Shown one piece after another: positions 5,005 through 58,234 of a stretch of DNA of 64,000 nt. The notes under the pieces were generated by a model that was not told where the DNA came from, did no database searches, and saw only the letters and a list, made by a program, of their open reading frames with translations. The number at the start of each line of letters is the position of its first letter. Position 1 is the first letter of the stretch. The translations under genes and the position numbers were made by a program. Source of the DNA: Escherichia phage MN05. The stretch lies in the sequence record NC_070987.1, one strand, 5' to 3'.

Positions 5005-5013
5005 GGAGATATT

Positions 5014-5796: not shown

Positions 5797-5815
5797 TAAC
5801 CTTTAAGGAGGACTT

Positions 5816-6868
5816 ATGTCTTTATTTGGAAAATCAGCTTCTAGCAAAACCACAGTGGCCCCTTCCTCTCAGGTTGATGCCCTGCTGAAGCAGATTGTTG
5901 CTAATGCTCAGAATATGCAGAACAACGATCCGGGATTCATCTCCCAACAGCTGGCTGGGTTTAATGGCAACCAACAAGGTGCTCTTAATAACTTAGCAGC
6001 TTCTACTACTCAGAAGAAACTAGCTGATATGTACACACCTCGTACACAGCAAGGTTTAGACCAACTTAACTCTCTTGCTCAACAGTATCAGAATATTGTT
6101 AATGGTGGTGGAGTGACGGCTGAAGGGGTTAATAACTTTAGTAAAGGTTTGAATAACTCAGCTCTTGCACAAGCTACTAGTAAAGCAGCTTCTAATGTTT
6201 CTCTTGGCAATGGCTCTGATTCAGGATCTCTCCGTAGAGCTGCGGCTCAAGGGGCTGCTTTGAATGGTGCTAACACTAACCTGTCTCGTACTATCAGTGG
6301 CAAGAATATGGGTGTAAGTGCTCTTCAACAAGATCAAAACTTCCAGAGAGGGTTGCTTGGTGCTCAATCTGGTCTAGCTGGACAGAACCTCAACCTAGGT
6401 GCTCAAGGTGTTCAGGCAACTCAACAGGCTATTCAGAATCAACTCATGGCTGGCAATCTTCAACAGCAACAAGCTCAAGCTCAGGCTGATACTAATTGGC
6501 AAAATGCTATTGGTTCTCAGCAGTATGGGTGGAATCAGCTTAACAACCAGCTTAATGTATTAAATAGTGTAAGTCCGATGGCTGGATACACGATTAAGAA
6601 TTCTGCTCCGGGAGTTAATGTTGGGCAGCAGCTCCTAGGTGCTGGTATCACTGGTTTAGGTATTGCGGGTCGTATGGGTGCTTTCTCTCCTGATCAACAA
6701 ACTCAGAATGCTTGGAGTTCCTATAACAATTCAGGTGGGCAATCTGGAATGGCTGGTCCTATGATTGGAGGTTCTAATCTTTCTCAACAGAAAGGTCAAT
6801 CTAACTGGTTATCCACAACGGGTAATAATATCTTAGGCGGAGTCTTAGGGGCATTTGGAGCAAACTAA
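5816..6868 (+). CDS. Gln/Asn/Gly-rich virion (internal/ejection) protein, paralog 1
   Basis: Track ORF; SD GGAGGA; shares N-terminal MxLFG and GFNxNQ..ALNNLA motif with the next gene. Confidence 0.5.
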   Translation: MSLFGKSASSKTTVAPSSQVDALLKQIVANAQNMQNNDPGFISQQLAGFNGNQQGALNNLAASTTQKKLADMYTPRTQQGLDQLNSLAQQYQNIVNGGGVTAEGVNNFSKGLNNSALAQATSKAASNVSLGNGSDSGSLRRAAAQGAALNGANTNLSRTISGKNMGVSALQQDQNFQRGLLGAQSGLAGQNLNLGAQGVQATQQAIQNQLMAGNLQQQQAQAQADTNWQNAIGSQQYGWNQLNNQLNVLNSVSPMAGYTIKNSAPGVNVGQQLLGAGITGLGIAGRMGAFSPDQQTQNAWSSYNNSGGQSGMAGPMIGGSNLSQQKGQSNWLSTTGNNILGGVLGAFGAN

Positions 6869-6880
6869 AGGAGATTTGAT

Positions 6881-7849
6881 ATGGCTTTATTTGGAGGAGG
6901 GAATAGTAAAACTACTTCCCAAATGATTCGCCCTGAATATATTCAACAGTATATTGACCAGCTTAACCAACAGATTGGTAATACTAGTTCAGGGGATTAT
7001 GTTTATCGTGACAATGTAGGATTCAATAACAACCAGACAGAAGCTCTTAACAACTTAGCACAATCTGGTGCTCTAGGGACTCTCTCGCAGCAATATATGG
7101 ATGCAGCAGGTCAAGGGTTGGGTTATCTAGATAATGCCTATAAAGGCTATCAGAGCCTCTCTGGACAAGGTGGGATTACTGGGGAACAGATTGGTGCTCT
7201 TGCTGGTCAACTATATGATGATGACGCTGTGCAAGCAGCCATTACAGCTAATAATGAACAAGTTCAACAGAACCTAGCACGTAACGCTCTTCCTCAGTTG
7301 TCTCAACAGTATGCTGGTCAGCAGGGTTCAGGTGCTCGTATGGCTAAATCTTTTGCTCAGGGTGATGCTCTGAATCAGATGCAAAGTCAAGCAACAGATA
7401 TTACCAATAGTGCTTATAACTCGGCTATCAACCAAGCTGAAAGCATTCTCTCTGGTAATAGACAGAATCAGGCAGCTGCTCTCTCGGGCCTTTCTACTAT
7501 CGGTTCTAACCTTTCTAATTTAGGTCAACAAGGTGCTGATCTATCTCAACAGCAAATACTAAACCAGTGGAAGGCTGGGTTGCAGCAACAACAGCAACAA
7601 CAGAATGAATATGATAATGCCTACCAGAATGCTCAGAACGCAGCTAATTGGGGATGGCAGGATATAAACAACCAACTCGGTGCAGCAGGTGTACTTAACG
7701 GTGCTCTCGGACAAACTACAACTACTAAAACATCTGGTGGGGGTGGTGGCTTCTTAGGTGGAGCTATGAGTGGTGCAGCAGCTGGCTCTTCTTTTGGTCC
7801 TTGGGGTGCCTTGGCTGGAGGGGTGATTGGCGGGATGGCTAGTTCTTAA
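6881..7849 (+). CDS. Gln/Asn/Gly-rich virion (internal/ejection) protein, paralog 2
   Basis: Track ORF; SD GGAG; paralogous to 5816..6868. Confidence 0.5.
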   Translation: MALFGGGNSKTTSQMIRPEYIQQYIDQLNQQIGNTSSGDYVYRDNVGFNNNQTEALNNLAQSGALGTLSQQYMDAAGQGLGYLDNAYKGYQSLSGQGGITGEQIGALAGQLYDDDAVQAAITANNEQVQQNLARNALPQLSQQYAGQQGSGARMAKSFAQGDALNQMQSQATDITNSAYNSAINQAESILSGNRQNQAAALSGLSTIGSNLSNLGQQGADLSQQQILNQWKAGLQQQQQQQNEYDNAYQNAQNAANWGWQDINNQLGAAGVLNGALGQTTTTKTSGGGGGFLGGAMSGAAAGSSFGPWGALAGGVIGGMASS

Positions 7850-7862
7850 TTAGGAGATAAAT

Positions 7863-9536
7863 ATGCAACAGACAACTTATGCTCAGGTCAGAAGTCGTGA
7901 CCCGAGAAATACTTTCTATGGTGTTAATCCGGGAGCGGCTTCGGCCTCTCCTTACATGGCTAGACCCATTCAGACAGCAGATGTTTCTATGTACCAACGT
8001 CCTGCTGTACCTGCTGGACTTTCCCGTCTTGTAGGTCAAACTTCAGTGGATTATCAGAATATGCTGAACCCTGTTCAGAGTAATGGACTTCCTTCTGATA
8101 TTCCTAATGACGTACAACCTCAAGCACAACAAGCTGTAACTCTTCCTGAGCCTAATAATCAAGAAACTGTGCAAGATGCCGGACCTTCTCCTTCTTCTGT
8201 TCCTCAAGAATCGGAGCCTCTTCCGGTGACGCCTCCGACTAAGCCTCTCGAAGATGGTCCTACAGAGTTTACTCCTTCTCAAGTAGAGCAGGCACAAGGT
8301 GTTGTTACCACTCTTGCTCAAAGTCAGGACACTGGTGAAGGCATGGCTGGGGCTACTCGTGCAAAAGATCAAGAACGTGTTAACTCTGATATCATGCAGA
8401 TTGCAAAAGCTAAAGACCCTTCAGAGGCTTGGAATAAGTTACAGAAAGAGCCGTTCTACCAGAACTCTAGTTTCTACACAGGCTTAATGGGTGTAGGTCT
8501 TTCAATCATGTCAGGTAAGTCTCCGATTGAAGCTTTCCAAATTGGTCAAGGTATGGCTAACCAAGATGAGACTAAGAAACAACTAGAAGCTAACCGTGAT
8601 GCATTGGTTGAACAAGGTTTCTCTCAAGACTCTATTGCTGCTGCTATCGCAAGCGGAGACCCTTCTCTTCTGAAGATGAGAGCTAAAGACCCTCTTCAAC
8701 AGGAAGCTTTATACGCTGAGCGTGAGAGACGCCAGAATGCTGAGTGGGATAGACGTCAAGCTATCAATGAAGAATCTGCTGAGAGAAATCGTAAGGCTAC
8801 TTGGGAAAACCAATTAGCTCTGGCAGAAGCCCGTGGTGAGATTGTTCGTGACAACCTTTTGTTCAAGAATGAACACAGTGTTCGTAAAACATCTCCCAAG
8901 TGGGAAAAATCAGAAGAACTTGGTGGTATTACCCCTAACTTCCGAGATAAGTTACAGCAATCTTATCGTCCTGTTATTAATGTCCTAGCTTCTCGAAACA
9001 AGTGGATGGCTCCTACAGAAGCTGCTATTTCTAAACTAGGAACTGGTTCAAACTCTCAAGAGAGTGCAGCTCAGCAACGTGCTGCTATTGAGAACTTGAC
9101 TAAACTTATTCAAGGTGGTTTAGCTTCCATTAATGGAGAGGTAATGAATGAGCTTACAGGTGATCCAGATTGGGTTAACAACAAGTTGAATAAGATTCAG
9201 ATGATGGCAGGTCAAGGTCCGACCGAAGCAAATATCAAATGGCTTAAAGCACTAGGTACAGAGATTCAAGAAATCGATAAAGAGGCAACTAAATATCAAG
9301 TAGCCCCTCTAGTGGAATCTTTGATTCTTGACAGTGGTTTAGCTCCTGATAATGCTATCAAAGCTGCTAACTCTATTTTTGCTCCTGGCTCTGTTCGACT
9401 TACTACTGAAGAGTTTAAAGAATGGTCTCGTGGACATAGTAAAGTTCATGATAAAACATTCCCTGATGATAAGCCCTCTAAATTGAAGGGTGGTGCTTTA
9501 TCTGATTCTTCAGATACTAGCTGGTTCACTAAGTAA
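7863..9536 (+). CDS. Virion structural / internal protein
   Basis: Track ORF with SD; Pro/Gln-rich linker then helical domain; position within the structural module. Confidence 0.45.
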   Translation: MQQTTYAQVRSRDPRNTFYGVNPGAASASPYMARPIQTADVSMYQRPAVPAGLSRLVGQTSVDYQNMLNPVQSNGLPSDIPNDVQPQAQQAVTLPEPNNQETVQDAGPSPSSVPQESEPLPVTPPTKPLEDGPTEFTPSQVEQAQGVVTTLAQSQDTGEGMAGATRAKDQERVNSDIMQIAKAKDPSEAWNKLQKEPFYQNSSFYTGLMGVGLSIMSGKSPIEAFQIGQGMANQDETKKQLEANRDALVEQGFSQDSIAAAIASGDPSLLKMRAKDPLQQEALYAERERRQNAEWDRRQAINEESAERNRKATWENQLALAEARGEIVRDNLLFKNEHSVRKTSPKWEKSEELGGITPNFRDKLQQSYRPVINVLASRNKWMAPTEAAISKLGTGSNSQESAAQQRAAIENLTKLIQGGLASINGEVMNELTGDPDWVNNKLNKIQMMAGQGPTEANIKWLKALGTEIQEIDKEATKYQVAPLVESLILDSGLAPDNAIKAANSIFAPGSVRLTTEEFKEWSRGHSKVHDKTFPDDKPSKLKGGALSDSSDTSWFTK

Positions 9537-9543
9537 GACCTAA

Positions 9544-9588
9544 GTCCTGCCTTCTATAATGTATATAGGGGGTAGGACATTTTTATTT
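9544..9588 (+). promoter_or_regulatory. Hairpin plus T-run (terminator-like) whose loop contains the motif TAATGTATA
   Basis: GTCCTGCC...GGTAGGAC stem followed by ATTTTTATTT; TAATGTATA at about 9557-9565, upstream of the 9604 start. Confidence 0.35.
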
Positions 9589-9603
9589 ATAAAAGGAGAC
9601 GTT

Positions 9604-12600
9604 ATGGCTAACATTAAACCGTGGGAAGAAGCTTCCAAAGCTCCTGCGTATCTGAATGCCTCTCCAGAGCGTCAAGCTCAAATGAGAGAACAATATAAGG
9701 CAGCAGGTGGCTCTATTCCTGAGGAACAACCAGTAGCACAACCACAACAAGAAGAACGTGGTGCTGTAGGTGAGTTTGCTCAAGGTGTGTCAAATGCTCT
9801 TCAGTCCGGCAGTGCTAATATCTCTGCTAACCTCTCTAGAGGTATTGGCGGTTTAGTTGAGATTGGTGAAGACCTAGTTGGAGCACAAACCGGCTATGGT
9901 AAACGTATGCAAGAGAACGCCCAGAACCTTCTTAAAGAACGTATGGATAAGATCGAGGACGGGATTGGTAAATCTGCTGGTCAGTATGCTGGGGTGGTTG
10001 CCGATATTGGTTTGACAGTTGCTAACCCGCTAGCTGCCGCTGCTATCATCGCAGGTCGTGAGACAGGTCGTGCATATGCAGACCAAACCCCTAAAGAGGG
10101 AGAAGACAAATCCGTTCTGGATGCAGCCTTAGTTGGTGGAGCTAACTATGCAGCTCAGAGAATTCTTCCGGGTGCTGTTGGTACAGCTAAGTCCACACTT
10201 GGTCGTATCGGTCAGAACGTTGCTAGTAACGCAGTGGCTGGTGCTAAGGGTGGTGCTATTGTTGGTGCTGCTGAAGCTCAAAACAAATATGGGGATGATA
10301 ACAATCTAGCTAGGACATTAGAAGGTGTTATCGAAGAAGGGGGCATGGGTGCTGCATTCGGTGGTGCAGTTGGTGGTGTTCATGGCTTAATTAGCCGTCC
10401 AGATTCTGCTGTATTCAAGAATACTCCAGAGTATGCAAAGACTGACATTGCTGCTGACGATGAATTAATTCGTAGTGCTAAGAATATTGATGAACTGAAA
10501 GAAGCCTACTCTAAAGCTGAAAATGCTAACGCTGCTTCTGCTCTTAATCTTCTGGATGAGAATGGATTCCGTATCACGGATGCTGTTGCTTTAGATTCTC
10601 CTGCTGCCCAGCGTATTCTTAATACAGACCAAGCTAGTGCCGAGAAAGCTGCTTCTGCTCAGAAAGAGCATTCTAATATTCCGGGTCTTAATCCTTTGGC
10701 TGCTCCTGCTAAAACTCGTGGTAAAGCATTCGCTGATAACGAGCACAACCAGAAGAAAGCTGTCGCTATGAAAGATGCAATGGCTGACTACACCAAGGAT
10801 AACACGAAAGCTCTTACAGATGTTCTAGATAACCTAGATCGTGAATTAACCTCTCTCCGAGCTGCTGATGATTTTACTGGAAGTCCACTTGATGCCAAAA
10901 ATCGTTCACAAGCTGACCGGGACTTCGTTGATGCTTACAAGACTTTCTATAATGAAGCAAACCGATTTAAAGCTCGTGATGGTGAAGATTTTAATAACTT
11001 TGTAGAGAAAGCTACTGAGCTACAGAAGATGGCTGATAATGTTTCTCCAGAGATGAAAAAAGCTATCGGTGGATTGAAGAAACTGAAAGGTATGCCTGAA
11101 GGTTTTAATCCTATCCAAGATGCTTACACTCTGAACAATACAGCTAAGTTCATGAGCAACCAAGATCGTGGTTGGACTTCTCTGACTGATGATGGCTTCC
11201 GTGAAGCTTCTTCTCCTAGTCTGGTTATGAATACACTTGGTGCTGCTAAGTATGCTTTGAATCGCTTCTCTTCTCAGCGTGCCCGCTCTCAACGTGTTAA
11301 GCAACAAGAATCTAACAGTGAAGCTATTCGCTCTCTGGCTCGTGGTGATTTGGAAGTTGCTCGTGCTAAGTCTACTGCTGACGAAGCTCGTGCTAAAATG
11401 GAAGAAGAACCAGTTGTTGATGACATTAAATTTAAGACGCAAAATGACGTGGAAAACGAACCGGTTCGGGATCCTTCTTCTAGTACTGTGACGGAAGAAA
11501 ATCTTCCTTCTTCTGCTCCTCAAGAAGCTCCTCTTACAGCTCGTGATTTGGTTGCGCAAAGACGTGCTATCCGTCAGGCTGAACAGCGTCGTGCTGAAGA
11601 AGAATCAGCTGCTGCTCAAGAAGCTCCGGTTGAACAGGCTCCGAAGGCTGAACCACTCCCTGCTCGTAATCCTTTAGAGGAACGTCGTGCCATGGAACAG
11701 CAACGTGCTCAAGAAGAGGCCGCACAGGCTCCAGAACCAACCGTAGAGGAACCAACAGTCAAATCTGAGCCGTTACCTACCCGTGCTCCTAAAGCTCCTG
11801 AGGAAGCTGTACAGGACGTTAAACCGGCAAGTGGTGTAGAACGTTTAGCTGCTATGTCTAGTACTGCTCGTCAGGCTACTATAGATCGTGCAGAACGTTT
11901 TGCTCGTTCTTTGTACTCTAAGACTGCTAAGGCTAAGGCCACTGCTGAAAACTTCTTGGCTTACAAGGGAAGTTATAGGGAGTTGATGCGTCGGATTCGT
12001 CAGGAAGATAATGCTATCAACACTGAACGTCATGAAGAGATGGCTCGTAATCAGAGAGCTACTCAGAAAGGTATTGCTACTGCTAAGAACAACGCTGTAC
12101 GATCTGAGTTTGCTGAATGGGTTAAAGAACGTGGTCTGCCAGAAGATATTGCTACTAAGGCATTACGTGCTGAAGAGAGCGGTTTAGGTGGGAACGTAAC
12201 TAACTTGGAAAGCCTGAAACGCAGATCTGAAAGATTGTACCAGAAGCAACGTGAGGCTGAGTTTGATAGGTTGTATCAAGAAGCTCTGGAAGAGAACAAA
12301 GCTTTCGATAAGAAGGATGCTCCTAAACTGGTTGACCAGAAGAAAGAGCTTCAGTCTGAGATTGATACTTTGATTGATTCTGAACCTTTACGTCCTGCTC
12401 AGAAAGATGCTATGCGTAGGCTGATGAATGACTTTGTAGATGGGAAGTTTAAATCTTCAGAGAAAGCTGGTAGGGAAGAGGCTTTGGAAGTTGGTCAGAT
12501 GAAGGATATTTGGGATGGGTTTATTAACACCTATAACAGAGAAGTGAATGCCTTCAACAAAGCTAACAAGAACTCTCAATACGAAGCTGCTGCTAAACAC

Positions 12601-14025
12601 TTGCAGGCTCGTGAAGAACGTCTTGCTACTCTGAGAAATAAAGCTCAGGCTCGTTCAGATGCTAAAGCTGCTGTTGAAAATGAACGTAAAACTCTAGAGG
12701 CTATTGCAGCTCAGAAGAGTGAGATTGAGAAGATGATGGAAGGTTTACCTAAACCTGTTCGTGAGGCTCAGGAATCTCGTACATTGAAACAGTTGGCTGC
12801 TCACCACGATAAGAACTCTCCAGTTCCTCCAGAGAAGTTCCGTAGTTACATTGAACGTATCCATAACGCCGAGTCAGATTACCTTGATCGTCAGCGTCGT
12901 TTAACTGATGCAGAGGAAGATGCTCGTCAGGCCAAGTGGAACAGGATGTATGAGCAAGCGGAAGAGATGGACCGTAAGTTTGATATAGACAAAAGAGTTA
13001 AGCGCAGTGAAGAGCTTAAAGCGGCTCAGAAGCGTGAGAATGACCTTATGGCAGTACAACGTCAACGTGACGACATTCATCGTCGCCTGATGCATACTAT
13101 GGAAGATAAAGGCATATCTAAAGAGGATGCTGAAGCATTTGCTGGTTCCTACATGGATAACCGTTATGCACTTCTTGATAAACCTATGACTCCTACTGAA
13201 CATCAGAATGCTCGTTCTCGTATCGAAGCTGATGTTGAGAAGTTTGCTAAGAAGTACGAATCAATGACTCCTATTGAGAAAGAGATTGTTAAGATTACTG
13301 GAGATACTGAAGGTAAACTTGATAATTTGGATGCGGATACTAGGAAGGCTGTTGAGGAGGCTCAGAAGGTTGACTCTGATATCAAGAAACTGCAAGAGGA
13401 AGAGTTGGAGATGGAGAAGATTCGTTCTGCTCTGCCTGATGATGAAAAATCTCAAGCAAATTCTGATATCTTGGAAAGCATTAAACAACAAGAAGAGGTC
13501 TTTGCTGATAAAGTAGAGAAAGCTTTCTTGAGTGGGAAGAGCTTGGATGAGTTGGCTAGTGTGGCTGAAGTTTTAGACAGGGTTCATGGTGCAGATAAGG
13601 CTGGTAACAACCGTCGCTTTGTACGTGCATTGCAGACTGCTGCTGAAAACAAGAAGAAGTATGGTGATAATCCAGTAGCTTGGTTTAGTGCTGATGATTA
13701 CTCTGCCATTGCTAAACTTGGTGCTTCTTCCGCAGGTGGTAACAAATCCAGAGCACTGGAGAAGATCTTTGGTTCTACAGCTGAACAGGCTAAGAGTAAG
13801 TTGCTTGGTAGGGATGATGTAGCGAAGATGAGACGTGTAATTGAAGAGAACCCTGATGTTAAGATTCCTTCTTACAAGACAACGAATCGTACTGAGTACT
13901 TGAAGTTCTTGGAGAAGTTTAATGACGAAGGGAAGCCGAAGATTAAACGTGGCTCATTGTCAGAGAAGCTTGAACGCAGTAAGCGTCAATCAAGACTCCG
14001 TGTAAGAGTTCGACCTAAGGAGTGA
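9604..14025 (+). CDS. Large internal virion / ejection protein (tape-measure-like, 1474 aa)
   Basis: Track ORF 9559..14025 trimmed to ATG 9604 with SD AAAGGAGA; Ala/Gly-rich N-terminal region then long charged helical region. Confidence 0.55.
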   Translation: MANIKPWEEASKAPAYLNASPERQAQMREQYKAAGGSIPEEQPVAQPQQEERGAVGEFAQGVSNALQSGSANISANLSRGIGGLVEIGEDLVGAQTGYGKRMQENAQNLLKERMDKIEDGIGKSAGQYAGVVADIGLTVANPLAAAAIIAGRETGRAYADQTPKEGEDKSVLDAALVGGANYAAQRILPGAVGTAKSTLGRIGQNVASNAVAGAKGGAIVGAAEAQNKYGDDNNLARTLEGVIEEGGMGAAFGGAVGGVHGLISRPDSAVFKNTPEYAKTDIAADDELIRSAKNIDELKEAYSKAENANAASALNLLDENGFRITDAVALDSPAAQRILNTDQASAEKAASAQKEHSNIPGLNPLAAPAKTRGKAFADNEHNQKKAVAMKDAMADYTKDNTKALTDVLDNLDRELTSLRAADDFTGSPLDAKNRSQADRDFVDAYKTFYNEANRFKARDGEDFNNFVEKATELQKMADNVSPEMKKAIGGLKKLKGMPEGFNPIQDAYTLNNTAKFMSNQDRGWTSLTDDGFREASSPSLVMNTLGAAKYALNRFSSQRARSQRVKQQESNSEAIRSLARGDLEVARAKSTADEARAKMEEEPVVDDIKFKTQNDVENEPVRDPSSSTVTEENLPSSAPQEAPLTARDLVAQRRAIRQAEQRRAEEESAAAQEAPVEQAPKAEPLPARNPLEERRAMEQQRAQEEAAQAPEPTVEEPTVKSEPLPTRAPKAPEEAVQDVKPASGVERLAAMSSTARQATIDRAERFARSLYSKTAKAKATAENFLAYKGSYRELMRRIRQEDNAINTERHEEMARNQRATQKGIATAKNNAVRSEFAEWVKERGLPEDIATKALRAEESGLGGNVTNLESLKRRSERLYQKQREAEFDRLYQEALEENKAFDKKDAPKLVDQKKELQSEIDTLIDSEPLRPAQKDAMRRLMNDFVDGKFKSSEKAGREEALEVGQMKDIWDGFINTYNREVNAFNKANKNSQYEAAAKHLQAREERLATLRNKAQARSDAKAAVENERKTLEAIAAQKSEIEKMMEGLPKPVREAQESRTLKQLAAHHDKNSPVPPEKFRSYIERIHNAESDYLDRQRRLTDAEEDARQAKWNRMYEQAEEMDRKFDIDKRVKRSEELKAAQKRENDLMAVQRQRDDIHRRLMHTMEDKGISKEDAEAFAGSYMDNRYALLDKPMTPTEHQNARSRIEADVEKFAKKYESMTPIEKEIVKITGDTEGKLDNLDADTRKAVEEAQKVDSDIKKLQEEELEMEKIRSALPDDEKSQANSDILESIKQQEEVFADKVEKAFLSGKSLDELASVAEVLDRVHGADKAGNNRRFVRALQTAAENKKKYGDNPVAWFSADDYSAIAKLGASSAGGNKSRALEKIFGSTAEQAKSKLLGRDDVAKMRRVIEENPDVKIPSYKTTNRTEYLKFLEKFNDEGKPKIKRGSLSEKLERSKRQSRLRVRVRPKE

Positions 14026-14034
14026 TAAAAGAAA

Positions 14035-14068
14035 AGCCCCAACCGAAAGGAAGGGGCTTTATTTGTTT
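14035..14068. terminator. Bidirectional rho-independent terminator between convergent gene blocks
   Basis: AGCCCC...GGGGCT stem flanked by an A-run on one side and a T-run on the other; plus-strand structural block ends here and the minus-strand block ends opposite. Confidence 0.5.
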
Positions 14069-14384
14069 CTAAGTTTTAAAAACCATCAAATTCGTCATAC
14101 ATCCCAATTCTCTTCAGAAGTCTGGATGTTCATCTTCAAAGCATCCTGAGATGCCTCCGTAGAACCAATCTGATTTATTGCCAAGAATGACAACTTCTTC
14201 ATTCATATACCCTCCTAGATTGTGTTTATAAAATTAGTAAGTTTCTCTTCACTTTCATCAAAAGCTTTTCCAGCTGCTTCCATCTCCCAAGTATCGGCAT
14301 TGTCAATAAAGCTCTGAGCTTCTAATAGGTCGTGGATTAAGTCAAAGAGTTTATTTTTATCTGCTTGTGTGATCATTTCAGTTC

Positions 14385-14612
14385 CTAGATTAAATCGTAA
14401 TACTGAATAATGTCCGAGAGCTTGAACTCTCGAACCTCATCTTTCTCTACATCAATTGCTGTCATAATCCAACAAGGTTTGCCACCGTTATGAAAACGGG
14501 AGCTAGCAACGGAGGTTCGGAGTGGAATAACGGACCGGTCAGCAACCTCGCCTCTCCAATTGCGATAGCGAAAGCGAAGTACTTGTTGCGTAGATTTTTG
14601 ATCATCACTCAT
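14385..14612 (-). CDS. Hypothetical protein (75 aa)
   Basis: Track ORF 14385..14753 trimmed to ATG 14612, which overlaps the HNH stop by 8 nt; the longer N-terminus would run inside the HNH gene. Confidence 0.4.
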   Translation of the reverse strand: MSDDQKSTQQVLRFRYRNWRGEVADRSVIPLRTSVASSRFHNGGKPCWIMTAIDVEKDEVREFKLSDIIQYYDLI

Positions 14613-15006
14613 TTCCTTTTTTGAATTGTTTTCTTGCATCATTCTCTTCTTTTGTTTTAATCTTATGACAAGGGTCTTTACACAGAACCTGAAAACCTTC
14701 TTTCTCACACAGAGCACGAGAGATGATCTCATCCCAAGTTGCTTCGTGGTCAATAGGAACTATAGGCTCTATGTGGTCAATAGCCATATCCTTTACAGGG
14801 TGGTCAGAACCACACATGGCACACTTAAAGTGCATTGCCAGTCTTCCTGTCTTTGGATTAATCTTCTGCTCTGTCTTGGCGTCTGCTAGTGCATCGAACA
14901 TGGGCTTCCACTTTCTAGTCAGAGAACGAATCCCTGACTTGATGAAAGAGTTGTAACGAGCTTCAGTCCACATTCCACTACAACGAGTCTTCTCAGACTT
15001 CGCCAT
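14605..15006 (-). CDS. HNH endonuclease
   Basis: CxxC...DHIxP...CxxxCH zinc-HNH motif. Confidence 0.6.
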   Translation of the reverse strand: MAKSEKTRCSGMWTEARYNSFIKSGIRSLTRKWKPMFDALADAKTEQKINPKTGRLAMHFKCAMCGSDHPVKDMAIDHIEPIVPIDHEATWDEIISRALCEKEGFQVLCKDPCHKIKTKEENDARKQFKKGNE

Positions 15007-46545: not shown

Positions 46546-46788
46546 CTATGGAGTTAAGATAATTTCAGCCTTACTAAACTTCTCACCAACTTCAAGAGTA
46601 TCAGCAACAGGACGGGGCACACCTGTACCCAAACAAACAGCCCTTCGATACCCTCCAGTCACAGGCATCATCAAATAGATGATCTGATTATCATCTTCTT
46701 TTAAAGTGAAGATATCAGCGATCGCTAGATCTTTAACAAAGAGTTTCTTTTCTTCTTCATGATGAACTTTGATATGTATTGTGCTCAT
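46546..46788 (-). CDS. Small protein, family A (G-x-hF / Y-hhh motif)
   Basis: ~80 aa with the shared motif pattern; tandem array. Confidence 0.45.
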   Translation of the reverse strand: MSTIHIKVHHEEEKKLFVKDLAIADIFTLKEDDNQIIYLMMPVTGGYRRAVCLGTGVPRPVADTLEVGEKFSKAEIILTP

Positions 46789-46790
46789 AC

Positions 46791-47036
46791 CTACTCCTGA
46801 ACCACTGACATACGAATCATTTCTACCTGATCATCAAGACCTTTAACAGATAATACACCTGTGGAAAGGTTTACCACAGGAACCCAACCACTGGCTATAC
46901 GGATGTTACCAGAAGCATTTTCAACCCTCATGTAATACTGAGGAGAGGCACTTCCGTTCTGAACCACGAAAGGGTTTCCGGGAATGATTGTTTCCAATCG
47001 TACCGTATTATCCTTTTTCTTTGGGATGATTTTCAT
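46791..47036 (-). CDS. Small protein, family A
   Basis: PGNPFVV...YYMRVEN...NLSTG. Confidence 0.5.
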   Translation of the reverse strand: MKIIPKKKDNTVRLETIIPGNPFVVQNGSASPQYYMRVENASGNIRIASGWVPVVNLSTGVLSVKGLDDQVEMIRMSVVQE

Positions 47037-47275
47037 TAGCCACCACTCACTAAAAGTTCAGCTGATACAGGGACAACTTGGCACGTAGAATCTGGTGCTG
47101 TTACAAGCCCGTCATGTAGACGAAGGGCTAGGGTACGTCCACTATTTACAGACACGTTGGGTGTGCCGTGAACAAAACCTTTAACATAAAGTGTGTCACT
47201 ATCTGGGTGCTTAAACACGGTCCCATTTTCTAAGGATTCAAGTGGGACACGATCAACTCTCTTTGTAATCTTCAT
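47036..47275 (-). CDS. Small protein, family A
   Basis: NGTVFKH...LYVKGF...NVSVNSG. Confidence 0.5.
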   Translation of the reverse strand: MKITKRVDRVPLESLENGTVFKHPDSDTLYVKGFVHGTPNVSVNSGRTLALRLHDGLVTAPDSTCQVVPVSAELLVSGG

Positions 47276-47283
47276 ATTGATTC

Positions 47284-47595
47284 CTATTTAAGTTTTAGAC
47301 TAATATTAAGGTGCATACATGCCCTGTTCTGTACAGCAGCATAACTTCTACCGAGCATGTCAGCCATTCTCTGAATAGACATGAACCCAGCATTACGGAT
47401 AAGGAACTGATCTTCTTCTTCAGACCATTTAACTCGGATTGAAGCTCTTGATATTCCGAATTTAGTGCAAGCTGTGTTAACAGCATTCTCCGTTACATTC
47501 ATAATCTGAGCAACTTCTTGAACCGAGTACTCTTTGATTAGTCTCCGAAGATTTTCAATCTGCATCGGAGTCCATATAGTTCTTCGTGCTTTCAT
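47284..47595 (-). CDS. Myb/SANT-like DNA-binding protein (two repeats)
   Basis: W..MQIENL...VAQIM and WSEEEDQFL...MADMLGRSYAAVQNRA repeats. Confidence 0.45.
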   Translation of the reverse strand: MKARRTIWTPMQIENLRRLIKEYSVQEVAQIMNVTENAVNTACTKFGISRASIRVKWSEEEDQFLIRNAGFMSIQRMADMLGRSYAAVQNRACMHLNISLKLK

Positions 47596-47949
47596 ACATC
47601 CTCCAATTAATTGTTAAAGCTATCAGGGGAGCACACTAGCTCTGGGCCACGCTGTAGATATCGGCCTGCCTTCCACAGCTAATCAGCTAATGTACTCTCC
47701 TAATAGTTTATGAATAGGGGGAGGGGACGAATCCTCCCATATCCTATTAATTAATATTGCATGTAAGATCTAACAATCGGTTGCCTTTGTAGGAATAAGC
47801 GTAAAGCCAATCCAGCACTAAACTCCCGCCCCCTTAGTGGGCTGGGTTATTAAAGGGTAACGCCCTTATGGGCTAGTTACATGAATGTTAGTTTGATAGG
47901 AGATCTGAAGTCCTATCTCAAAGGACTCTCGTAAGAATCCTTCACGATA

Positions 47950-48207
47950 TTACTTAAAGATAAAATGTATAACTGCATCATATGCTTTAGACAGAAGCCA
48001 ACCTATCGGATAACAAACTCCTGCCAATATTGAGATAGGCCACAACACAATTAAGATCACAACCATCATCTCATCAGGTTCAGAGCTGGTGGATCCTGTT
48101 GTAATGACCCCTTTTAGTAGACCTTTCTTGTATAGCAGTTTCAGCACTAAAACAGAAAGGAATACTCCAATAAAGTAAACTGAGATAAAAATATCAAGTA
48201 AACCCAT
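47950..48207 (-). CDS. Small membrane protein, pair F (1 of 2)
   Basis: Two predicted transmembrane segments; shared LWPI motif. Confidence 0.45.
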   Translation of the reverse strand: MGLLDIFISVYFIGVFLSVLVLKLLYKKGLLKGVITTGSTSSEPDEMMVVILIVLWPISILAGVCYPIGWLLSKAYDAVIHFIFK

Positions 48208-48218
48208 TTAATCGTCTC

Positions 48219-48350
48219 TTACTTATTCATCTCTCGTCGGCTGTCTCTCCAAGCCAACCAAGTGTAGGTTTTCAGTTCTTCAAAGTCTTCTGGAGAGAAG
48301 AGATAATCTTTGAAGGTGTTTCCAAACCACTCTAAAAATTCTTTAGTCAT
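48219..48350 (-). CDS. Hypothetical small protein (43 aa)
   Basis: ATGA overlap with the upstream stop. Confidence 0.3.
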   Translation of the reverse strand: MTKEFLEWFGNTFKDYLFSPEDFEELKTYTWLAWRDSRREMNK

Positions 48351-48592
48351 GAGTCCTCATACTTTTTGTTAGGAAGGATGAAATCCCAAAGAGCAGCCCA
48401 TACTGCGAGAGATATAAACAGTACAGCAATGATAGGCCATAGGAAAACCATGGCTGCTATCTTTCCAAGGTCTGCTTCACCTCTCCAGTTTCTAAAGCAT
48501 TCATCACCTTTAACATCTATAACCTTAATAAGTACTCCTGATAATACCATACCTATCAGATATACTATTAACACACTAACAAGACTGATCAC
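48347..48592 (-). CDS. Small membrane protein, pair F (2 of 2)
   Basis: Paralog of 47950..48207. Confidence 0.45.
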   Translation of the reverse strand: MISLVSVLIVYLIGMVLSGVLIKVIDVKGDECFRNWRGEADLGKIAAMVFLWPIIAVLFISLAVWAALWDFILPNKKYEDS

Positions 48593-48791
48593 AAGGTTGA
48601 TCTCCGCATGTTTTACAGATCACTGGTGAGTAACTACAGGCAGGATATACTGACACTCCATCCCACGTCTCACACCCACAGTCAGGACATGTACCATTAG
48701 AAGTCATGTCATCATCGTCACACACATCACCGCCACCAAAACAACTCATATGAACTCCCCTATTAATTGAGAATCCAACTGCCATTCTCAT
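48576..48791 (-). CDS. Cys-rich small protein (start uncertain)
   Basis: Track ORF; CPDCGC...CKTCGD clusters. Confidence 0.35.
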   Translation of the reverse strand: MRMAVGFSINRGVHMSCFGGGDVCDDDDMTSNGTCPDCGCETWDGVSVYPACSYSPVICKTCGDQPCDQSC

Positions 48792-48911
48792 CTATGAATG
48801 AAATCCAATCCCCTACACTCCACTTTGTAGTATCCCCTTTAGGGGATTCTCGGAGAGTGTACATTCCATTTCGAAAAAGCATTCGTTTAAGTTTCACTTA
48901 AGTTAAACTCC

Positions 48912-49133
48912 TTAGTAAACTAAACCTACAACCTTTGCATTAGCTTGAGGGGTGACTTCAGCGGCTGGACGAAATCCGTCAACAACACCGTTGCAGATGT
49001 TGATGCAAGTGATATACCCTCCAACCTCTTGGTCGCCTTTAATCCAAAAACCATCTCTATGTCTAAAAGCACTTCCGCTTAGGAGTGTAGACAGAGGAAC
49101 TACTGGGAGTGTTTGCTTAGCTTCAACCAACAT
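48912..49133 (-). CDS. Small protein, family A
   Basis: SGSAFRHRDGFWIKG...NICNG. Confidence 0.45.
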   Translation of the reverse strand: MLVEAKQTLPVVPLSTLLSGSAFRHRDGFWIKGDQEVGGYITCINICNGVVDGFRPAAEVTPQANAKVVGLVY

Positions 49134-49140
49134 AATAACC

Positions 49141-49395
49141 TCAATTATCGTAGCATGTATTCCAATACATGTAGTTAATGTACGTTCTCGGTTTGATTCC
49201 GTACATGATGAAGTGAGTCTTCTTAATCCTTTCCTTCAGTGTGTAGTAAAGGCCATCGCTGAAGTTACCAATCTTTACTTGGAAGCGTAAAGAGCGAGCA
49301 TCCATTCGAAGCATAGAGATTAGCTGTACCCTACTACCCCCAGCCATCTCTTCCAGAAGCTTCTTTGTATTCCAATAATGAGCTGTCATACTCAC
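49141..49395 (-). CDS. Hypothetical protein
   Basis: Track ORF. Confidence 0.4.
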   Translation of the reverse strand: MSMTAHYWNTKKLLEEMAGGSRVQLISMLRMDARSLRFQVKIGNFSDGLYYTLKERIKKTHFIMYGIKPRTYINYMYWNTCYDN

Positions 49396-49396
49396 C

Positions 49397-49558
49397 TCAG
49401 CGTAGTAAGGTTACGGATGAAAGTTTACCTGTTGCACAGAGAATAACCTCTTTTACAGGGTATTCGTTTCCTGAAAGATCTTCAATATAGACAATAGCTT
49501 CTGGACCACAGTCAACAGATAGATTTTCAAGAGTTCTGATGAGTTCTTCAATAGTCAT
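49397..49558 (-). CDS. Hypothetical small protein (53 aa)
   Basis: ATG 1 nt after the upstream stop; ends 1 nt before the next start. Confidence 0.35.
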   Translation of the reverse strand: MTIEELIRTLENLSVDCGPEAIVYIEDLSGNEYPVKEVILCATGKLSSVTLLR

Positions 49559-49559
49559 A

Positions 49560-49859
49560 TCACCACTCCTTACCGGTTGTTGTTACAGAGCCACCACACC
49601 ACAACGCTGTATCAATCACAACATTGTCTGGAGTAGATTTCTCTTCGTTGATAGAAGGGTTAGCGTTAGAGCAGGTTGCTCCGTTCCAGCGCATATCAAT
49701 TTCACCAGAAGGAATCTTCTCACCTTTATGCCAGCGAGAAACACAAACACCTTCCACTGCTACTGCACACCACCCATCAGGACGGCTCTGTACGCAGCCT
49801 GTAATGGCCACACAGACAAGGAAGATACAGATTAAGGATATTACACCACCCCAACTCAT
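49560..49859 (-). CDS. Predicted lipoprotein
   Basis: Signal peptide with lipobox-like AITGC. Confidence 0.45.
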   Translation of the reverse strand: MSWGGVISLICIFLVCVAITGCVQSRPDGWCAVAVEGVCVSRWHKGEKIPSGEIDMRWNGATCSNANPSINEEKSTPDNVVIDTALWCGGSVTTTGKEW

Positions 49860-49878
49860 AACTATCTCCTACGTTGAT

Positions 49879-49954
49879 TGGTGCACCCTACAGGACTCGA
49901 ACCTGTAACCAACGACTTAGAAGGTCGCTGCTCTGTCCATTGAGCTAAGGGTGC
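49879..49954 (-). tRNA. tRNA-Arg (anticodon TCT), CCA encoded
   Basis: 76-nt cloverleaf folded by hand: 7-bp acceptor stem, D-arm GCTC/GAGC, anticodon loop CTTCTAA, T-arm ACAGG-TTCGAGT-CCTGT, 3' ACCA. Confidence 0.85.
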
Positions 49955-49963
49955 TAGATTTGT

Positions 49964-50173
49964 TTAACTAAAGATACGAATGGCTACATCATGACCGATA
50001 TGACCGGGAACTTTATGCTGTTCTATTTTCAAACAGTGTTTACAGATACGAGATACACGAGATTCTTTTCTCTCGACCGGAGTGTCTTTAGCGTGGGTGA
50101 TATGTAGGTTCTCAGTGATCACCCACTCGTGTTTACATCCAGAATCTTCGGGCTTTTTCTTACGAAAGAACAT
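49964..50173 (-). CDS. Small zinc-finger protein, family C (1 of 3)
   Basis: Track ORF trimmed to ATG 50173 with SD AAGGGG; CKHEW...CKHC. Confidence 0.4.
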   Translation of the reverse strand: MFFRKKKPEDSGCKHEWVITENLHITHAKDTPVERKESRVSRICKHCLKIEQHKVPGHIGHDVAIRIFS

Positions 50174-50181
50174 AACACCCC

Positions 50182-50346
50182 TTAGATCAGATCTGTTTTC
50201 TTGTGCAGACCACACACTTTACAGCGAGAGTAGATACGCAACCCTTGTCGCTCTCTGTCAGTAAGTTTATTTGTGATCGTCAGTTCATAAGTATGAAGAT
50301 CTTCCCACTCATGGAAATGAAAGAAGCGTTTGAACCATTTGATCAT
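50182..50346 (-). CDS. Small zinc-finger protein, family C (2 of 3; 54 aa, below the track cutoff)
   Basis: MIKWFKRFFHFHEW...CKVCG paralogous to 50356..50517. Confidence 0.4.
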   Translation of the reverse strand: MIKWFKRFFHFHEWEDLHTYELTITNKLTDRERQGLRIYSRCKVCGLHKKTDLI

Positions 50347-50355
50347 AATGATTCC

Positions 50356-50517
50356 TTAGATTACATCACGATGACTAACATCACCACACACCTTACACTG
50401 AATAACGTAACGTGTGCCCTTGTCATTATTCCCATCTGAATCTGTATAGACCAGAGGGCGAGTATTAATAATCTTCCAATCATGACAATGAAAGACACGC
50501 TTTAGCCACTTGAACAT
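50356..50517 (-). CDS. Small zinc-finger protein, family C (3 of 3)
   Basis: Track ORF 50356..50691 trimmed to MFKWLKRVFHCHDW...CKVCG with SD GAGG; the track N-terminus overlaps the neighbouring gene. Confidence 0.4.
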   Translation of the reverse strand: MFKWLKRVFHCHDWKIINTRPLVYTDSDGNNDKGTRYVIQCKVCGDVSHRDVI

Positions 50518-50524
50518 ATTAACC

Positions 50525-50776
50525 TCAAGCACAAGCAGGGAGAGTGATGATTTTATACTTGTCATCAAACTCTCCAAATAAACCCAAGAATATAGGACTG
50601 TAAGTACCAGTACAAACAAACTCATCAAACAATGCGTTATAGCTAGGCTTAATCTTCCAAGCCCATACATAACCCATCTTATCAATTGCAATGTAACGAG
50701 TGTTCAGAGGAACAGTCATCATTACACCGTCAACTTCGATCACTTTAGTTATTGGTGCAGCTTGAAAGTTTTTCAT
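50525..50776 (-). CDS. Hypothetical protein
   Basis: Track ORF. Confidence 0.4.
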   Translation of the reverse strand: MKNFQAAPITKVIEVDGVMMTVPLNTRYIAIDKMGYVWAWKIKPSYNALFDEFVCTGTYSPIFLGLFGEFDDKYKIITLPACA

Positions 50777-50997
50777 CCTACTCTCCTAACATTTAGGGTA
50801 GCTTGATAGTATTTGACAGGGCAAGTTCTATCAAATGTAAATCTTGTTTCAGGATTCTTTATACAGATAGCATGTCTGTGCATAACCTTCATGTATAAAG
50901 GAGGTTTTGTATCCCCGTCTATTTCTAGAGAGAATACATCACCATTACGTAGACTACCAAAAGTATTATCTTTAGGTTCAGAGTGGACGATAATCAT
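50773..50997 (-). CDS. Small protein, family A
   Basis: NGDVFSLEIDG...LYMKV. Confidence 0.45.
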   Translation of the reverse strand: MIIVHSEPKDNTFGSLRNGDVFSLEIDGDTKPPLYMKVMHRHAICIKNPETRFTFDRTCPVKYYQATLNVRRVG

Positions 50998-51170
50998 ACT
51001 TTACCTTTGATAAAAATATCATTACCACAAACACAGCATGAACGAACAACAGTAGCGCCACGCTGAACGATACGAACCTCTTCCTTAACCAGATTAATAC
51101 GAGCACCGCAGCAAGGAGAGTTAACATAAGAGTAACCAGCTTGTGTATTCTTGATTGTTTGCTTAGACAT
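50994..51170 (-). CDS. Cys-rich zinc-ribbon protein (58 aa, below the track cutoff)
   Basis: CC...CCVC clusters; stop overlaps the next start (ATGA). Confidence 0.35.
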   Translation of the reverse strand: MSKQTIKNTQAGYSYVNSPCCGARINLVKEEVRIVQRGATVVRSCCVCGNDIFIKGKV

Positions 51171-51519
51171 TTGATTCGAGATCTCTTAGTTGTTCAGCCA
51201 TTTGTTCGCATTCGTTGATGCAGAACACTTCTGTTCTTGGAACCCCGTTAGGGTTGAACCGTGTCTTATCACCTGCATGGGCACAATCAAATCCGATTGT
51301 ATCTAAACCACCCATCTCTTCAAGGGTGTCTTGCCATGTGACACCACCATGAACGTTCACATAACAAACAACCTTTTCCTCTCCGTTATATCCGGTGAAG
51401 TTTTTATGTTTCAAACTATCTGGTAACTCTACATACCCACATAAGTGGGAATTGTTCATGTGCATAATCACAGAACGAAGACCCGATTTAGTTTCCCAAC
51501 TTTTAACTATGCGTCTCAT
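51163..51519 (-). CDS. Hypothetical protein
   Basis: Track ORF. Confidence 0.45.
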   Translation of the reverse strand: MRRIVKSWETKSGLRSVIMHMNNSHLCGYVELPDSLKHKNFTGYNGEEKVVCYVNVHGGVTWQDTLEEMGGLDTIGFDCAHAGDKTRFNPNGVPRTEVFCINECEQMAEQLRDLESNV

Positions 51520-51596
51520 ATAAGCACCTCTTGTTAGTTTAAGTAAGAGTTGTCCCTTAATTAAAACAACAAAGGCCGCCCGAAGGCAGCCTCTCT

Positions 51597-51848
51597 TTAT
51601 TGACTCACACCACGAATCAGATGATTCTGTAGCGTCCCGTCTTCTGCATTATAAAGGAATGCGAACATCAATTCCTTAGCCACATCTCTTGAGCAATTAA
51701 GACACTTAGAGATTTGAGTTAGTTGAGCGTTGCGATCAGTGTGTTCCATCAAGGCAATGCGAATGATCTCTCGCATACCTATTACATGAACTGATTTAAC
51801 CGGCATAGGTCCAATTACCTTGCTTGTTACGAATGGCTGACATTGCAT
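51597..51848 (-). CDS. Hypothetical protein (start uncertain)
   Basis: Track ORF; several internal Met candidates. Confidence 0.35.
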   Translation of the reverse strand: MQCQPFVTSKVIGPMPVKSVHVIGMREIIRIALMEHTDRNAQLTQISKCLNCSRDVAKELMFAFLYNAEDGTLQNHLIRGVSQ

Positions 51849-52124
51849 GAACCCAGAAGCCTTCCAGTTTCAGAGCACCGTTAGCTACTGCATCCATACG
51901 TTCAGGGCGGTTCATACGTTTGGTTGATACTTTCATACCTATCTCTCTTTGTTGGTGGAGGCATTATTGCCAGTTGATATAGCGGATGACTCTTACAATA
52001 GAGCCACCTACTCTACAAACTGGTGAAGACTCCCTACCCCTAGGAAGTCTCCTGAATCCCAAACCAATACGTACCCCTACATATCGGAAAGTCTTTCGAA
52101 AATTAACAGGTTTTAGTCTAACAC

Positions 52125-52228
52125 CGGATGTTCGAGCAAGCTCTCCCTAGCGGTGTGGCATATGCCTGGTTAATAAGTTAATGAGGAACATCCTCACATA
52201 GCCCTCTGATAAACACAAGGGCTATAAG
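52125..52228. repeat. Conserved bipartite intergenic element, copy B
   Basis: CGGATGTTCGAGCAAGCTCTCCCTAGC and CTCACATAGCCCT...AGGGCTATAAG; matches copy A. Confidence 0.45.
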
Positions 52229-52234
52229 TCGATG

Positions 52235-52453
52235 TTACTTTTGAGTCAAACACAAATCAGGACGAGGCATAACAGTGGTTGACAGATTGAACACACCAAT
52301 ATATCCAGTTACCAAATTAGCTGCCTGACGCAAGCCATCAGGAGTCTTATCCTCTAGCATCAGCCAGAAGCATTTATCATAAGAGAAAACATCACCACCC
52401 TTAACGTCTTCTGCATTTGCATATTTAGGATAATCAACTACTTTAATTTCCAT
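52235..52453 (-). CDS. Small protein, family A
   Basis: GGDVFSYDKCFWLM...NLVTG. Confidence 0.5.
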   Translation of the reverse strand: MEIKVVDYPKYANAEDVKGGDVFSYDKCFWLMLEDKTPDGLRQAANLVTGYIGVFNLSTTVMPRPDLCLTQK

Positions 52454-52711
52454 TTACTTGCCTTTATTAGTAATTACTACATCAGGGACGAGGATAACTT
52501 TACTTTTTGATCTGAGCTTAATGACTTTTTTATTTGTCAGACTCAGGACAACACACCCACCATCAGAGGGTTTAACTTCCTTGATTTGTGGTGAAAACAA
52601 CTGAACAACCATGTAGAAATCTGCGCGGGTATCCCTGATTTGGAATACATCCCCGAGAACAAGATCACCCACTGTAAGATCTGGGTCTTTCATCTCAAGA
52701 TCAATCTTCAT
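52454..52711 (-). CDS. Small protein, family A
   Basis: LGDVFQIRD...FYMVV. Confidence 0.5.
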   Translation of the reverse strand: MKIDLEMKDPDLTVGDLVLGDVFQIRDTRADFYMVVQLFSPQIKEVKPSDGGCVVLSLTNKKVIKLRSKSKVILVPDVVITNKGK

Positions 52712-52958
52712 CTTTATCCTCTATGTTAGTTATGTGGAGATCATTGCGCACTTGGCAGACTTCGTTTTTGCTGATAACAATAAGCTCTCCAGAAACCACG
52801 TTAACGCAATTGACGTGATAATCAGTTGTTAATCCGGTTCTGATATAGAGGGAACCTTTAAAATGAAACAGGGCACCCGGCCTCATGTTATTTAAACGGA
52901 GTGTAGTATGATCAGGCTTAATATTAACTTTCACTGTTAATCTCCTGCTGCTTAGCAA
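52701..52958 (-). CDS. Small protein, family A
   Basis: PGALFHFKGSLYIRTG...NVVSG. Confidence 0.45.
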   Translation of the reverse strand: MLSSRRLTVKVNIKPDHTTLRLNNMRPGALFHFKGSLYIRTGLTTDYHVNCVNVVSGELIVISKNEVCQVRNDLHITNIEDKDED

Positions 52959-57189: not shown

Positions 57190-58234
57190 TTAAAGAGCGG
57201 TAAATCTATCAAACGTGCTTTCTCACGTTATGCAACTGTTAGCCGTTGTTACGCTTTTCACTGAAGCGGTGTTTTGCTTGAGTGTGCTCATTATGGACCA
57301 TGATGTTTTCGCCGTCAACCGCTTTTTTAATCTTTTTCGTCGTTCCCACTATTGGGAGGATATATCAACCAGCTTTGTTTGATTGAAGATCAAGCGATAA
57401 GGCTTAACTCATGATTCACATTGTTAAAGAGCGTTTAGCCTTTTATAGTGTCTGCTAATCACTGCATCATTAAAGGCTTACTTATTCATTAACGGGGCGC
57501 CTAATCCCGAACTGCCCGCTGCACTATGTGCCACCTTTCCCGCGATACGTTGATTTGGGAACTAGTTAACGTTGTTTTGTTAACTTGTGGTTAGTATGAA
57601 CTACCTTAACCACGTTTGCAACCTCTTTTTTATCATCTTCTTTTATTCTTTTCCCTTATCTCGCGTGACTCTATGCGAAAGGGCAAGATGATAAGTCTGA
57701 TTTGTCTTTTAGGAATCTAGTACGCTTTCAAGCATTAATCTTTTGAAAGTATCGAACAAATAAGGCTTATTGATATTGCTTATTGTCCGCCTGCGTCACG
57801 TATGAATCAGGAATCAATTCTACCGATTAACTGGGCGCCTTATAGTAATGACGTCGCCGCCACCCGTAAGACAAATCATATTTTTAAAGAGCGTGCGGCT
57901 CACATAACACCGCTTGATAGTCAGTTAACCTATGACTATTCAGGGGCATGGTATCCGTCTGCCTACGTCTGACTTGCTTCACTCACTAGGGAGTTACTTG
58001 AGCGGTCATCTTGTCTTTCTAAGCTCATTATAGGTTAGGCTTTCCAGTTGTCAAATACTTTTTCAAGTATTTTTTCACTTTCCAGCCTGATTTTTAAAGA
58101 GCGGGGCAAGTTTCCTTGCCTTGTATGTTTTACATCGTACCCGATGAAAACCAGTATACGCCATCTTTCACGGAGCGCAATAGGGCAAAGCAAAATATTT
58201 TAAACTTTTTCACTATAGGGAAGATAAAAGAGCG
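57190..58234. repeat. Dispersed direct repeats of TTAAAGAGCG (four exact copies and one degenerate) in an ORF-free region
   Basis: Copies at 57190, 57424, 57884 and 58094, plus AAAAGAGCG at 58226; each preceded by AT-rich ATT(G/T)T. Confidence 0.5.
57290..57318 (-). promoter_or_regulatory. Sigma70-like promoter candidate (minus strand)
   Basis: TTGACG-N17-CATAAT with an upstream A-tract; no ORF of 60 aa or more for about 900 nt downstream. Confidence 0.35.

Follow-up and report, generated by a model that had tools for sequence, protein, structure and literature searches.

Eight small proteins from the early region of Escherichia phage MN05 as paralogs within a large, unnamed superfamily with a predicted SH3-like fold

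Introduction

The right end of the phiEco32 genome carries a leftward-transcribed cluster of genes that has been defined experimentally as the early class, and transcription of this cluster, in phiEco32 as in SU10, is carried out by the host sigma-70 RNA polymerase from promoters at the cluster start (PMC8948821; PMC9965538; PMC4281155). A number of the small proteins encoded there (phiEco32 gp95-98, gp104, gp109 and gp113-115) are represented in the PHROG database by eight separate and unlinked families of 'unknown function' (PHROGs 12612, 7431, 7832, 6570, 10911, 9955, 16423 and 8365). The present analysis concerns a set of eight small open reading frames (ORFs) on the minus strand of Escherichia phage MN05 (NC_070987.1), a phiEco32-like coliphage (Kuravirus), located between positions 46546 and 52934 of a stretch of 64,000 nucleotides, the whole of which is referred to here as the window. 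The eight PHROGs were found to be direct orthologs or family models of these proteins (E 1e-16 to 1e-40), and they are joined here into one superfamily.

Neither PHROGs, Pfam nor NCBIfam assigns a function to any of the eight, in agreement with a preliminary description of the window, made from the sequence alone, which had held that their function could not be read from the sequence. The literature searched yielded no paper on the paralogy of these phage proteins, and nothing specific on N4 gp21 or on anti-defence or toxic early genes of Kuraviruses. In kind, the proteins are ordinary, being small early phage accessory proteins undescribed as a family; what is notable is the breadth of the family and its recurrent tandem expansion.

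Eight Diverged Paralogs in the Window

All eight ORFs were recovered on the minus strand at the coordinates given in the preliminary description, each preceded by a plausible Shine-Dalgarno sequence, and only the start of the eighth was moved (52934 in place of 52958). Their counterparts in phiEco32 are, in order, gp95, gp96, gp97, gp104, gp109, gp113, gp114 and gp115, and they are named below by these types. Compared pairwise, the eight proteins are barely recognizable as relatives; the best BLASTP E-value among them was 0.002 in a database of the eight sequences, which is insignificant alone, and mean column identity in the family alignments was 19-29%. Such values are what would be expected were the shared pattern a product of chance or of compositional convergence among unrelated small ORFs, an explanation that is left with next to no probability by the profile-level comparisons. 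With a database comprising all ORFs of the window and of five relatives, iterative hidden Markov model (HMM) searches from seven of the eight seeds converged on the identical eight window ORFs. When three shuffled decoys were added for each ORF, the search gathered 54 members from the six genomes and none of the 2,412 decoys, with nothing else at E < 10 and no twilight matches.

Profile-profile alignment of 12 orthologous groups with hhalign gave a connected network in which every group had at least one link with a probability of at least 67% and many of the links had 80-97%, whereas all 168 control comparisons with 14 other groups of small early proteins remained at or below 3.5%. Each protein strongly matched its own PHROG, and the independently built PHROG profiles of the others were matched weakly, yet over the full length and collinearly. 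Finally, when the entire 64-kb window was scanned in six frames from stop to stop, eight matches had E <= 3e-10 and the ninth had E = 0.16, a gap of more than eight orders of magnitude; the window therefore holds exactly eight copies and no degenerate remnants. All eight were matched full-length and collinearly by both a broad profile (E 1e-10 to 5e-20) and a Kuravirus profile (E 5e-16 to 9e-24). The 'about eight' paralogs of the preliminary description thus became exactly eight in each of the three approaches (iterative HMM searches with decoys, hhalign with controls and the six-frame scan), and the shared pattern, for which an alignment had been proposed as the check, is statistically supported at the profile level.

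The N- and C-terminal motifs noted in the preliminary description proved to be real. The signature of the family consists of h-x-x-G-D-V-F in strand 2 (h, hydrophobic), an aromatic [FY][YW]h in strand 3, a V-N-L-x-T-G hairpin and a conserved V in strand 6, and four of its positions (G20, F23, G61 and V72) are conserved in at least 90% of 128 sequences. A partly degenerate form of the hairpin, ICIKNPETR, is present in the gp109-type copy, and the gp95-type copy has C in place of N. Taken together, these comparisons of sequence strongly support the view that the eight are genuine, anciently diverged paralogs. Median ratios of nonsynonymous to synonymous substitution (dN/dS) of 0.05-0.24 across all eight orthologous groups indicate purifying selection in each, and the eight are therefore real, functional genes.

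The individual genes differ in how closely they are tied to the family. The most peripheral is the gp95 type (46546..46788; 80 amino acids; PHROG 12612, E 1.4e-38; dN/dS 0.20), which entered the family profile on the third iteration (E 8.5e-4), is matched by the broad profile at E 1e-10, has a best hhalign link of 67% and matches outside family members at E 1e-7; its orthologs show the motifs D[IV]F, IY[LM]M and AVNLGTG. Next to it, the gp96 type (46791..47036; 81 amino acids; PHROG 7431; broad-profile E 2e-19; dN/dS 0.24) was present in all nine relatives examined, and its tblastn matches were limited to 74 Kuravirus-like records. Its start overlaps, in an ATGA junction, the stop of the gp97 type (47036..47275; 79 amino acids; PHROG 7832; broad-profile E 1.6e-12; dN/dS 0.20). 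The hub of the profile-profile network is the gp104 type (48912..49133; 73 amino acids; PHROG 6570; broad-profile E 8e-19; dN/dS 0.17), the group of which was linked by hhalign to the gp115, gp97 and gp113 groups at 93%, 89% and 81%, respectively. The gp109 type (50773..50997; 74 amino acids; PHROG 10911; broad-profile E 4e-12; dN/dS 0.05) was linked at 95% to the gp98-type group and at 73% to the gp97 group. The gp113 type (52235..52453; 72 amino acids; broad-profile E 5e-20; dN/dS 0.07) falls in PHROG 6570, as does the gp104 type, and is followed by the gp114 type (52454..52711; 85 amino acids; PHROG 9955), the member chosen for structure modelling.

The gp115 type (52701..52934; PHROG 16423; dN/dS 0.15) overlaps the gp114 type by 11 nucleotides. 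Translation of this gene most likely begins at the GTG at 52934, giving a protein of 77 amino acids, and not at the TTG at 52958, which would give the long form of 85. The start was moved because the GTG is kept in four orthologs, because NJ01 and SU10 have an in-frame stop 4-5 codons upstream of it, and because the PHROG 16423 alignment begins at residue 9 of the long form. This start, 24 nucleotides further downstream, is one of two respects in which the analysis goes beyond the preliminary description; the other is that the family reaches far past this group of phages.

A Large Superfamily of Phage and Mobile-Element Proteins

When 1.84 billion representative proteins were searched exhaustively with HMMER, 1,408 clusters, defined at 50% identity, scored E <= 0.001; the majority are proteins of 68-85 amino acids matched from end to end. 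Some giant multi-repeat proteins among the matches, such as those with DUF7507 immunoglobulin (Ig) repeats or cadherin repeats, were rejected as repeat-driven false positives, and 'about a thousand or more' clusters is therefore the safe statement of the size of the family. By these sequence comparisons, the eight proteins are part of an extensive superfamily, as yet without a name, whose members come from phages and mobile elements. Searches of Pfam, NCBIfam and the PDB provided its members with no model in either library, no name and no solved structure, and the PHROGs matched by the members were always the same eight, of unknown function. Word-indexed homolog searches with the family profiles returned only unnamed proteins devoid of Pfam domains, and a search for related loci with the family consensus sequence gave no confirmed match.

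Among the members outside the phiEco32-like phages are uncharacterised ORFans of three tractable model podoviruses. Full-length profile matches were obtained with N4 gp21 (E 1e-10 to 5e-17), PaP3 ORF65 (E 8e-8) and LUZ24 gp7 (E 6e-9 to 1e-11), all of which resemble the window proteins in size and motifs; N4 gp21 and PaP3 ORF65 were also matched structurally. Each of the three is present as a single copy, compared with the eight of the window. Further contigs that carry members include one resembling phi29, others resembling lytic phages, and others again with such conjugative-element markers as DUF932 and PcfJ. The domain also occurs in tandem fusions of two, three and five copies. The last of these is encoded in a Tenacibaculum metagenome-assembled genome (contig L012, positions 3583-5019), where five tandem repeats of strongly basic character (isoelectric point [pI] 9.7) follow the protease domain of a chromosomally encoded SprT-like metalloprotease; the gene adjoins those for the housekeeping proteins LpxK, RF-1 and RNase H and represents the sole cellular multi-domain context found. 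Given these fusions, including that with the SprT-like protease, the domain acts as an autonomous module.

A Predicted SH3-Like Barrel

A small beta-rich fold had been suggested in the preliminary description, and structure prediction bore this out. The AlphaFold2 model of the gp114-type protein, built from a family alignment of 94 sequences, is all-beta with seven strands (predicted local distance difference test [pLDDT] 81.3; predicted template modelling [TM] score 0.73), and contains a five-stranded, strongly bent antiparallel barrel that can be superposed on known SH3-like domains. In BFVD, this model matched independent models of Kuravirus family proteins from NJ01, LAMP and ES17 (TM 0.5-0.73), as well as small uncharacterised proteins of unrelated phages. 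One of the NJ01 matches, K4ICI6 (73 amino acids), is probably the ortholog of either the gp104 or the gp113 type. With the gp95 type, a model made from its own orthologs only was likewise all-beta and seven-stranded at low confidence (pLDDT 58.6), and a fold search with it retrieved an ES17 ortholog alone (82% identity to the gp95 type); the same ES17 model in BFVD was matched by the gp114-type model at TM 0.50-0.52. The models thereby lend good support to a common predicted fold for most members of the family and weak support in the case of the gp95 type. Each protein is predicted to be a single-domain, SH3-like beta-barrel of about 75 amino acids that resides in the cytoplasm, and none is predicted to be an enzyme.

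The near-invariant columns of the family are the alternating hydrophobic residues of the core and the glycines of turns, and insertions and deletions are limited to two loops (28-30 and 38-52 in the numbering of the gp114 type); the pattern is therefore that of a conserved scaffold with diversified surfaces. With the SH3-like barrels of the uL2 C-terminal domain, EF-P domain I, Spt5 KOW, Tudor/PWWP, FeoA and the DtxR C-terminal domain, the gp114-type model is alike at the level of the fold only; the phage family differs in having additional N- and C-terminal strands, and there is no significant sequence relationship. Neither the single sequences nor the family profiles gave a significant match in Pfam-A or NCBIfam, and none of the family members therefore matches the anti-defence families in those libraries. 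The best match of the family profiles in the PDB had an E-value of 0.12. By sequence, the eight thus belong only to their own PHROG clusters, and by predicted fold to the SH3-like barrels.

The sole recurrent weak match in Pfam was EFP_N (PF08207), which was detected in six of 128 family members, with a best E-value of 0.011, below the gathering threshold, and in none of the eight window proteins. Kinship with the EF-P N-domain was rejected. The hhalign comparison gave 2.2% against 2.0-2.2% for reversed controls (with a low-diversity EF-P alignment), and the PGKG loop with its modified lysine is absent, the equivalent loop between strands 3 and 4 (38-52 of the gp114 type) being the most variable part of the family.

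Copy Number and Tandem Expansion

Among nine Kuravirus-like genomes, the number of family members was observed to vary from three in LAMP through six in 4E8, eight in both the present window and Paul, and nine in phiEco32, SU10, CHD5UKE1 and KBNP1711, to ten in NJ01. Of the types, just three (gp95, gp96 and gp104) occur in all nine. LAMP (68.5 kb; 5772-8992), of a small-genome Kuravirus clade, is without the gp109 and gp113-115 types, along with several more of the early genes, and the state of this clade is a natural multi-gene deletion that could be used as a comparator.

Outside this group, N4, PaP3 and LUZ24 have one copy each, and a conjugative-element-like contig has three. An unrelated, AT-rich, phage-like contig of 61 kb (ENA ERZ16268292, scaffold_2832) carries an array of 14-16 copies at 8838-14819, which includes a two-domain fusion (13331-13741) and is larger than any Kuravirus expansion examined. 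From this array and the other multi-copy cases it follows that tandem expansion is a recurrent property of the superfamily. In their size, early position, arrangement in arrays of ORFs, variable copy number and presence on conjugative-element-like contigs, these proteins resemble the multi-copy small accessory proteins of early and leading regions.

The Kuravirus paralogs are mostly as distant from each other as they are from outside members, and the set is therefore either old or was partly assembled by acquisition. Three pairs look, from their sequences, like duplicates that arose within the lineage, namely gp109 and gp98, gp114 and the additional copy in NJ01 and SU10, and gp113 and gp104.

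Early Expression

Approximately 105 phage records, all from phiEco32-like coliphages (subfamily Gordonclarkvirinae), match the 7.3-kb region that contains the eight genes at 87-93% identity, NJ01 and TH38 most closely. The annotated phiEco32 block gp93-gp116 is the syntenic counterpart of this region, which the preliminary description had called early and which is the equivalent of the early class established by experiment in phiEco32. Because the eight genes are syntenic and orthologous with gp95-115 of the published early block, we infer that they are expressed early, from a block dependent on host RNA polymerase. A consensus scan placed a predicted promoter with perfect sigma-70 consensus (TTGACA-16-TATAAT; 58027..58054, minus strand) in front of the leftward early block that contains the family; it is offered as context only, and agrees with the early sigma-70 promoters published for the phiEco32 and SU10 clusters.

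This placement bears on the proposal that the eight are carried in the virion or assist in its assembly, for instance as injected internal proteins or as chaperones. Small SH3-like domains are known in some phage structural proteins, which is in favor of such a role. Against it, the early block that holds the genes is on the other strand from the late genes, and mass spectrometry of SU10 preparations, which detected 34 proteins, revealed none of the SU10 orthologs; a virion role is accordingly highly improbable.

Possible Functions

As a whole, the observations are best explained by SH3-like paralogs of the early block that serve as diversified binders of host macromolecules in accessory roles, a reading that we regard as an even call. 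The conserved barrel would provide the scaffold, with the two variable loops and the surface diversified, and each paralog would engage, early in infection, a macromolecular partner of its own from the host (or the phage). The binding function and the nature of the targets are inferred here from the models, and the roles envisaged would be accessory and host-dependent, with host factors, possibly immunity proteins, being modulated or neutralised; outright killing of the host would be unlikely. The accessory nature is suggested by the variation of three to ten copies among close relatives.

An alternative is that the proteins are small nucleic-acid-binding factors, akin to KOW, Tudor or Sm barrels, that bind phage or host RNA, DNA or the ribosome and so regulate early transcription or translation. 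The closest class of SH3-like domains (uL2, EF-P and KOW) is mostly associated with RNA or the ribosome, three of the window members are mildly basic (pI approximately 9.1) and the SprT-fused repeats are strongly so (pI 9.7), all of which tell for this alternative and weigh against the diversified binders. The window members as a group are near neutral (net charge -2.5 to +2.7). The outside members have a median pI of 5.3, with 68% below pI 6, and none of the positions conserved across the family holds a basic residue; this acidic bias, together with the lack of a conserved basic residue, argues against a generic nucleic-acid binder, and the alternative is considered unlikely.

Further points stand against the reading as diversified binders. 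The idea of a binding module draws only on fold, the pattern of variability and context; the independent model of the most peripheral member, the gp95 type, is of low confidence; and the gene-wide dN/dS values indicate purifying selection, whereas a simple arms race would be expected to produce diversifying selection. In addition, the single result available on toxicity concerns a distant homolog in another host.

That result comes from LUZ24, the gp7 of which was among 13 early proteins expressed in Pseudomonas aeruginosa PAO1 and was not one of the four that inhibited growth (PMC4635203). It is of consequence for the notion that the family consists of host shut-off or growth-inhibitory 'takeover' proteins, each poisoning an essential host process. 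The genes do occupy an early block of small ORFs, a common place for such inhibitors, and the neighboring early ORFans of LUZ24 (gp4, gp6, gp9 and gp11) were the inhibitory ones (PMC4635203), yet the family member itself was not inhibitory in the same screen, and a copy number ranging from three to ten among otherwise similar phages is unexpected for essential functions. The non-toxicity of LUZ24 gp7 and this variation argue against a general role in host shut-off, which is very unlikely; the former leaves room for a possible anti-defence role.

The Gordonclarkvirinae were observed in the BASEL study to be unusually resistant to restriction-modification with no known inhibitor (PMC11990801), and the contexts in which the family occurs would fit a counter-defence role, an attractive possibility. 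In its strongest form, the reading as diversified binders would extend to a widespread repertoire in which a stable SH3-like scaffold acquires loops with new specificities and is amplified in arrays, each paralog neutralising a different host immunity or restriction factor. Such a repertoire is decidedly unlikely; were it true, it would help to explain the broad resistance of the Gordonclarkvirinae to restriction-modification and other defences.

The eight proteins make up about one-fifth of the small early genes in a therapeutically relevant group of coliphages, and what had been isolated ORFans now form a single target, with one superfamily, a confident fold and members in the tractable phages N4 and LUZ24/PaP3. 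The natural copy-number variants, three in the LAMP clade and 8-10 elsewhere, represent ready-made comparisons. If the paralogs bind host factors specifically, they would yield a set of small natural inhibitors and offer a possible account of the broad resistance to defences; if they are ordinary, dispensable accessory proteins, the gain would be the definition of a new domain family for annotation.

Neighboring Genes and Genome Layout

A tRNA-Arg gene (anticodon TCT; 49879-49954, minus strand) lies amid the small early genes, as it does in phiEco32 and relatives. Beyond it, three adjoining minus-strand ORFs (49964-50215, 50182-50346 and 50356-50691) have in common K-W-[FL]-K-R-x-F-H-x-H-[ED]-W followed by C-K-x-C-[GL] near the C-terminus, and look, by these motifs, like a second paralogous family, one of zinc-ribbon-like early proteins. 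Two other minus-strand genes, 47950-48207 and 48347-48592, encode predicted small membrane proteins of 85 and 81 amino acids, respectively, with similar hydrophobic N-termini and a common LWPI motif; they are probably another pair of paralogs of the early block.

On a larger scale, the Bruynogheviruses of Pseudomonas and the phiEco32-like phages have in common a module encoding an aminotransferase, an amidoligase and a COOH-NH2 ligase (32292-39596 in PaP3; 1-5102 in phiEco32). In both PaP3 and phiEco32, this ligase module is followed in the same orientation by a right-end block of small early ORFs, which suggests that the two layouts derive from a common ancestral genome arrangement.

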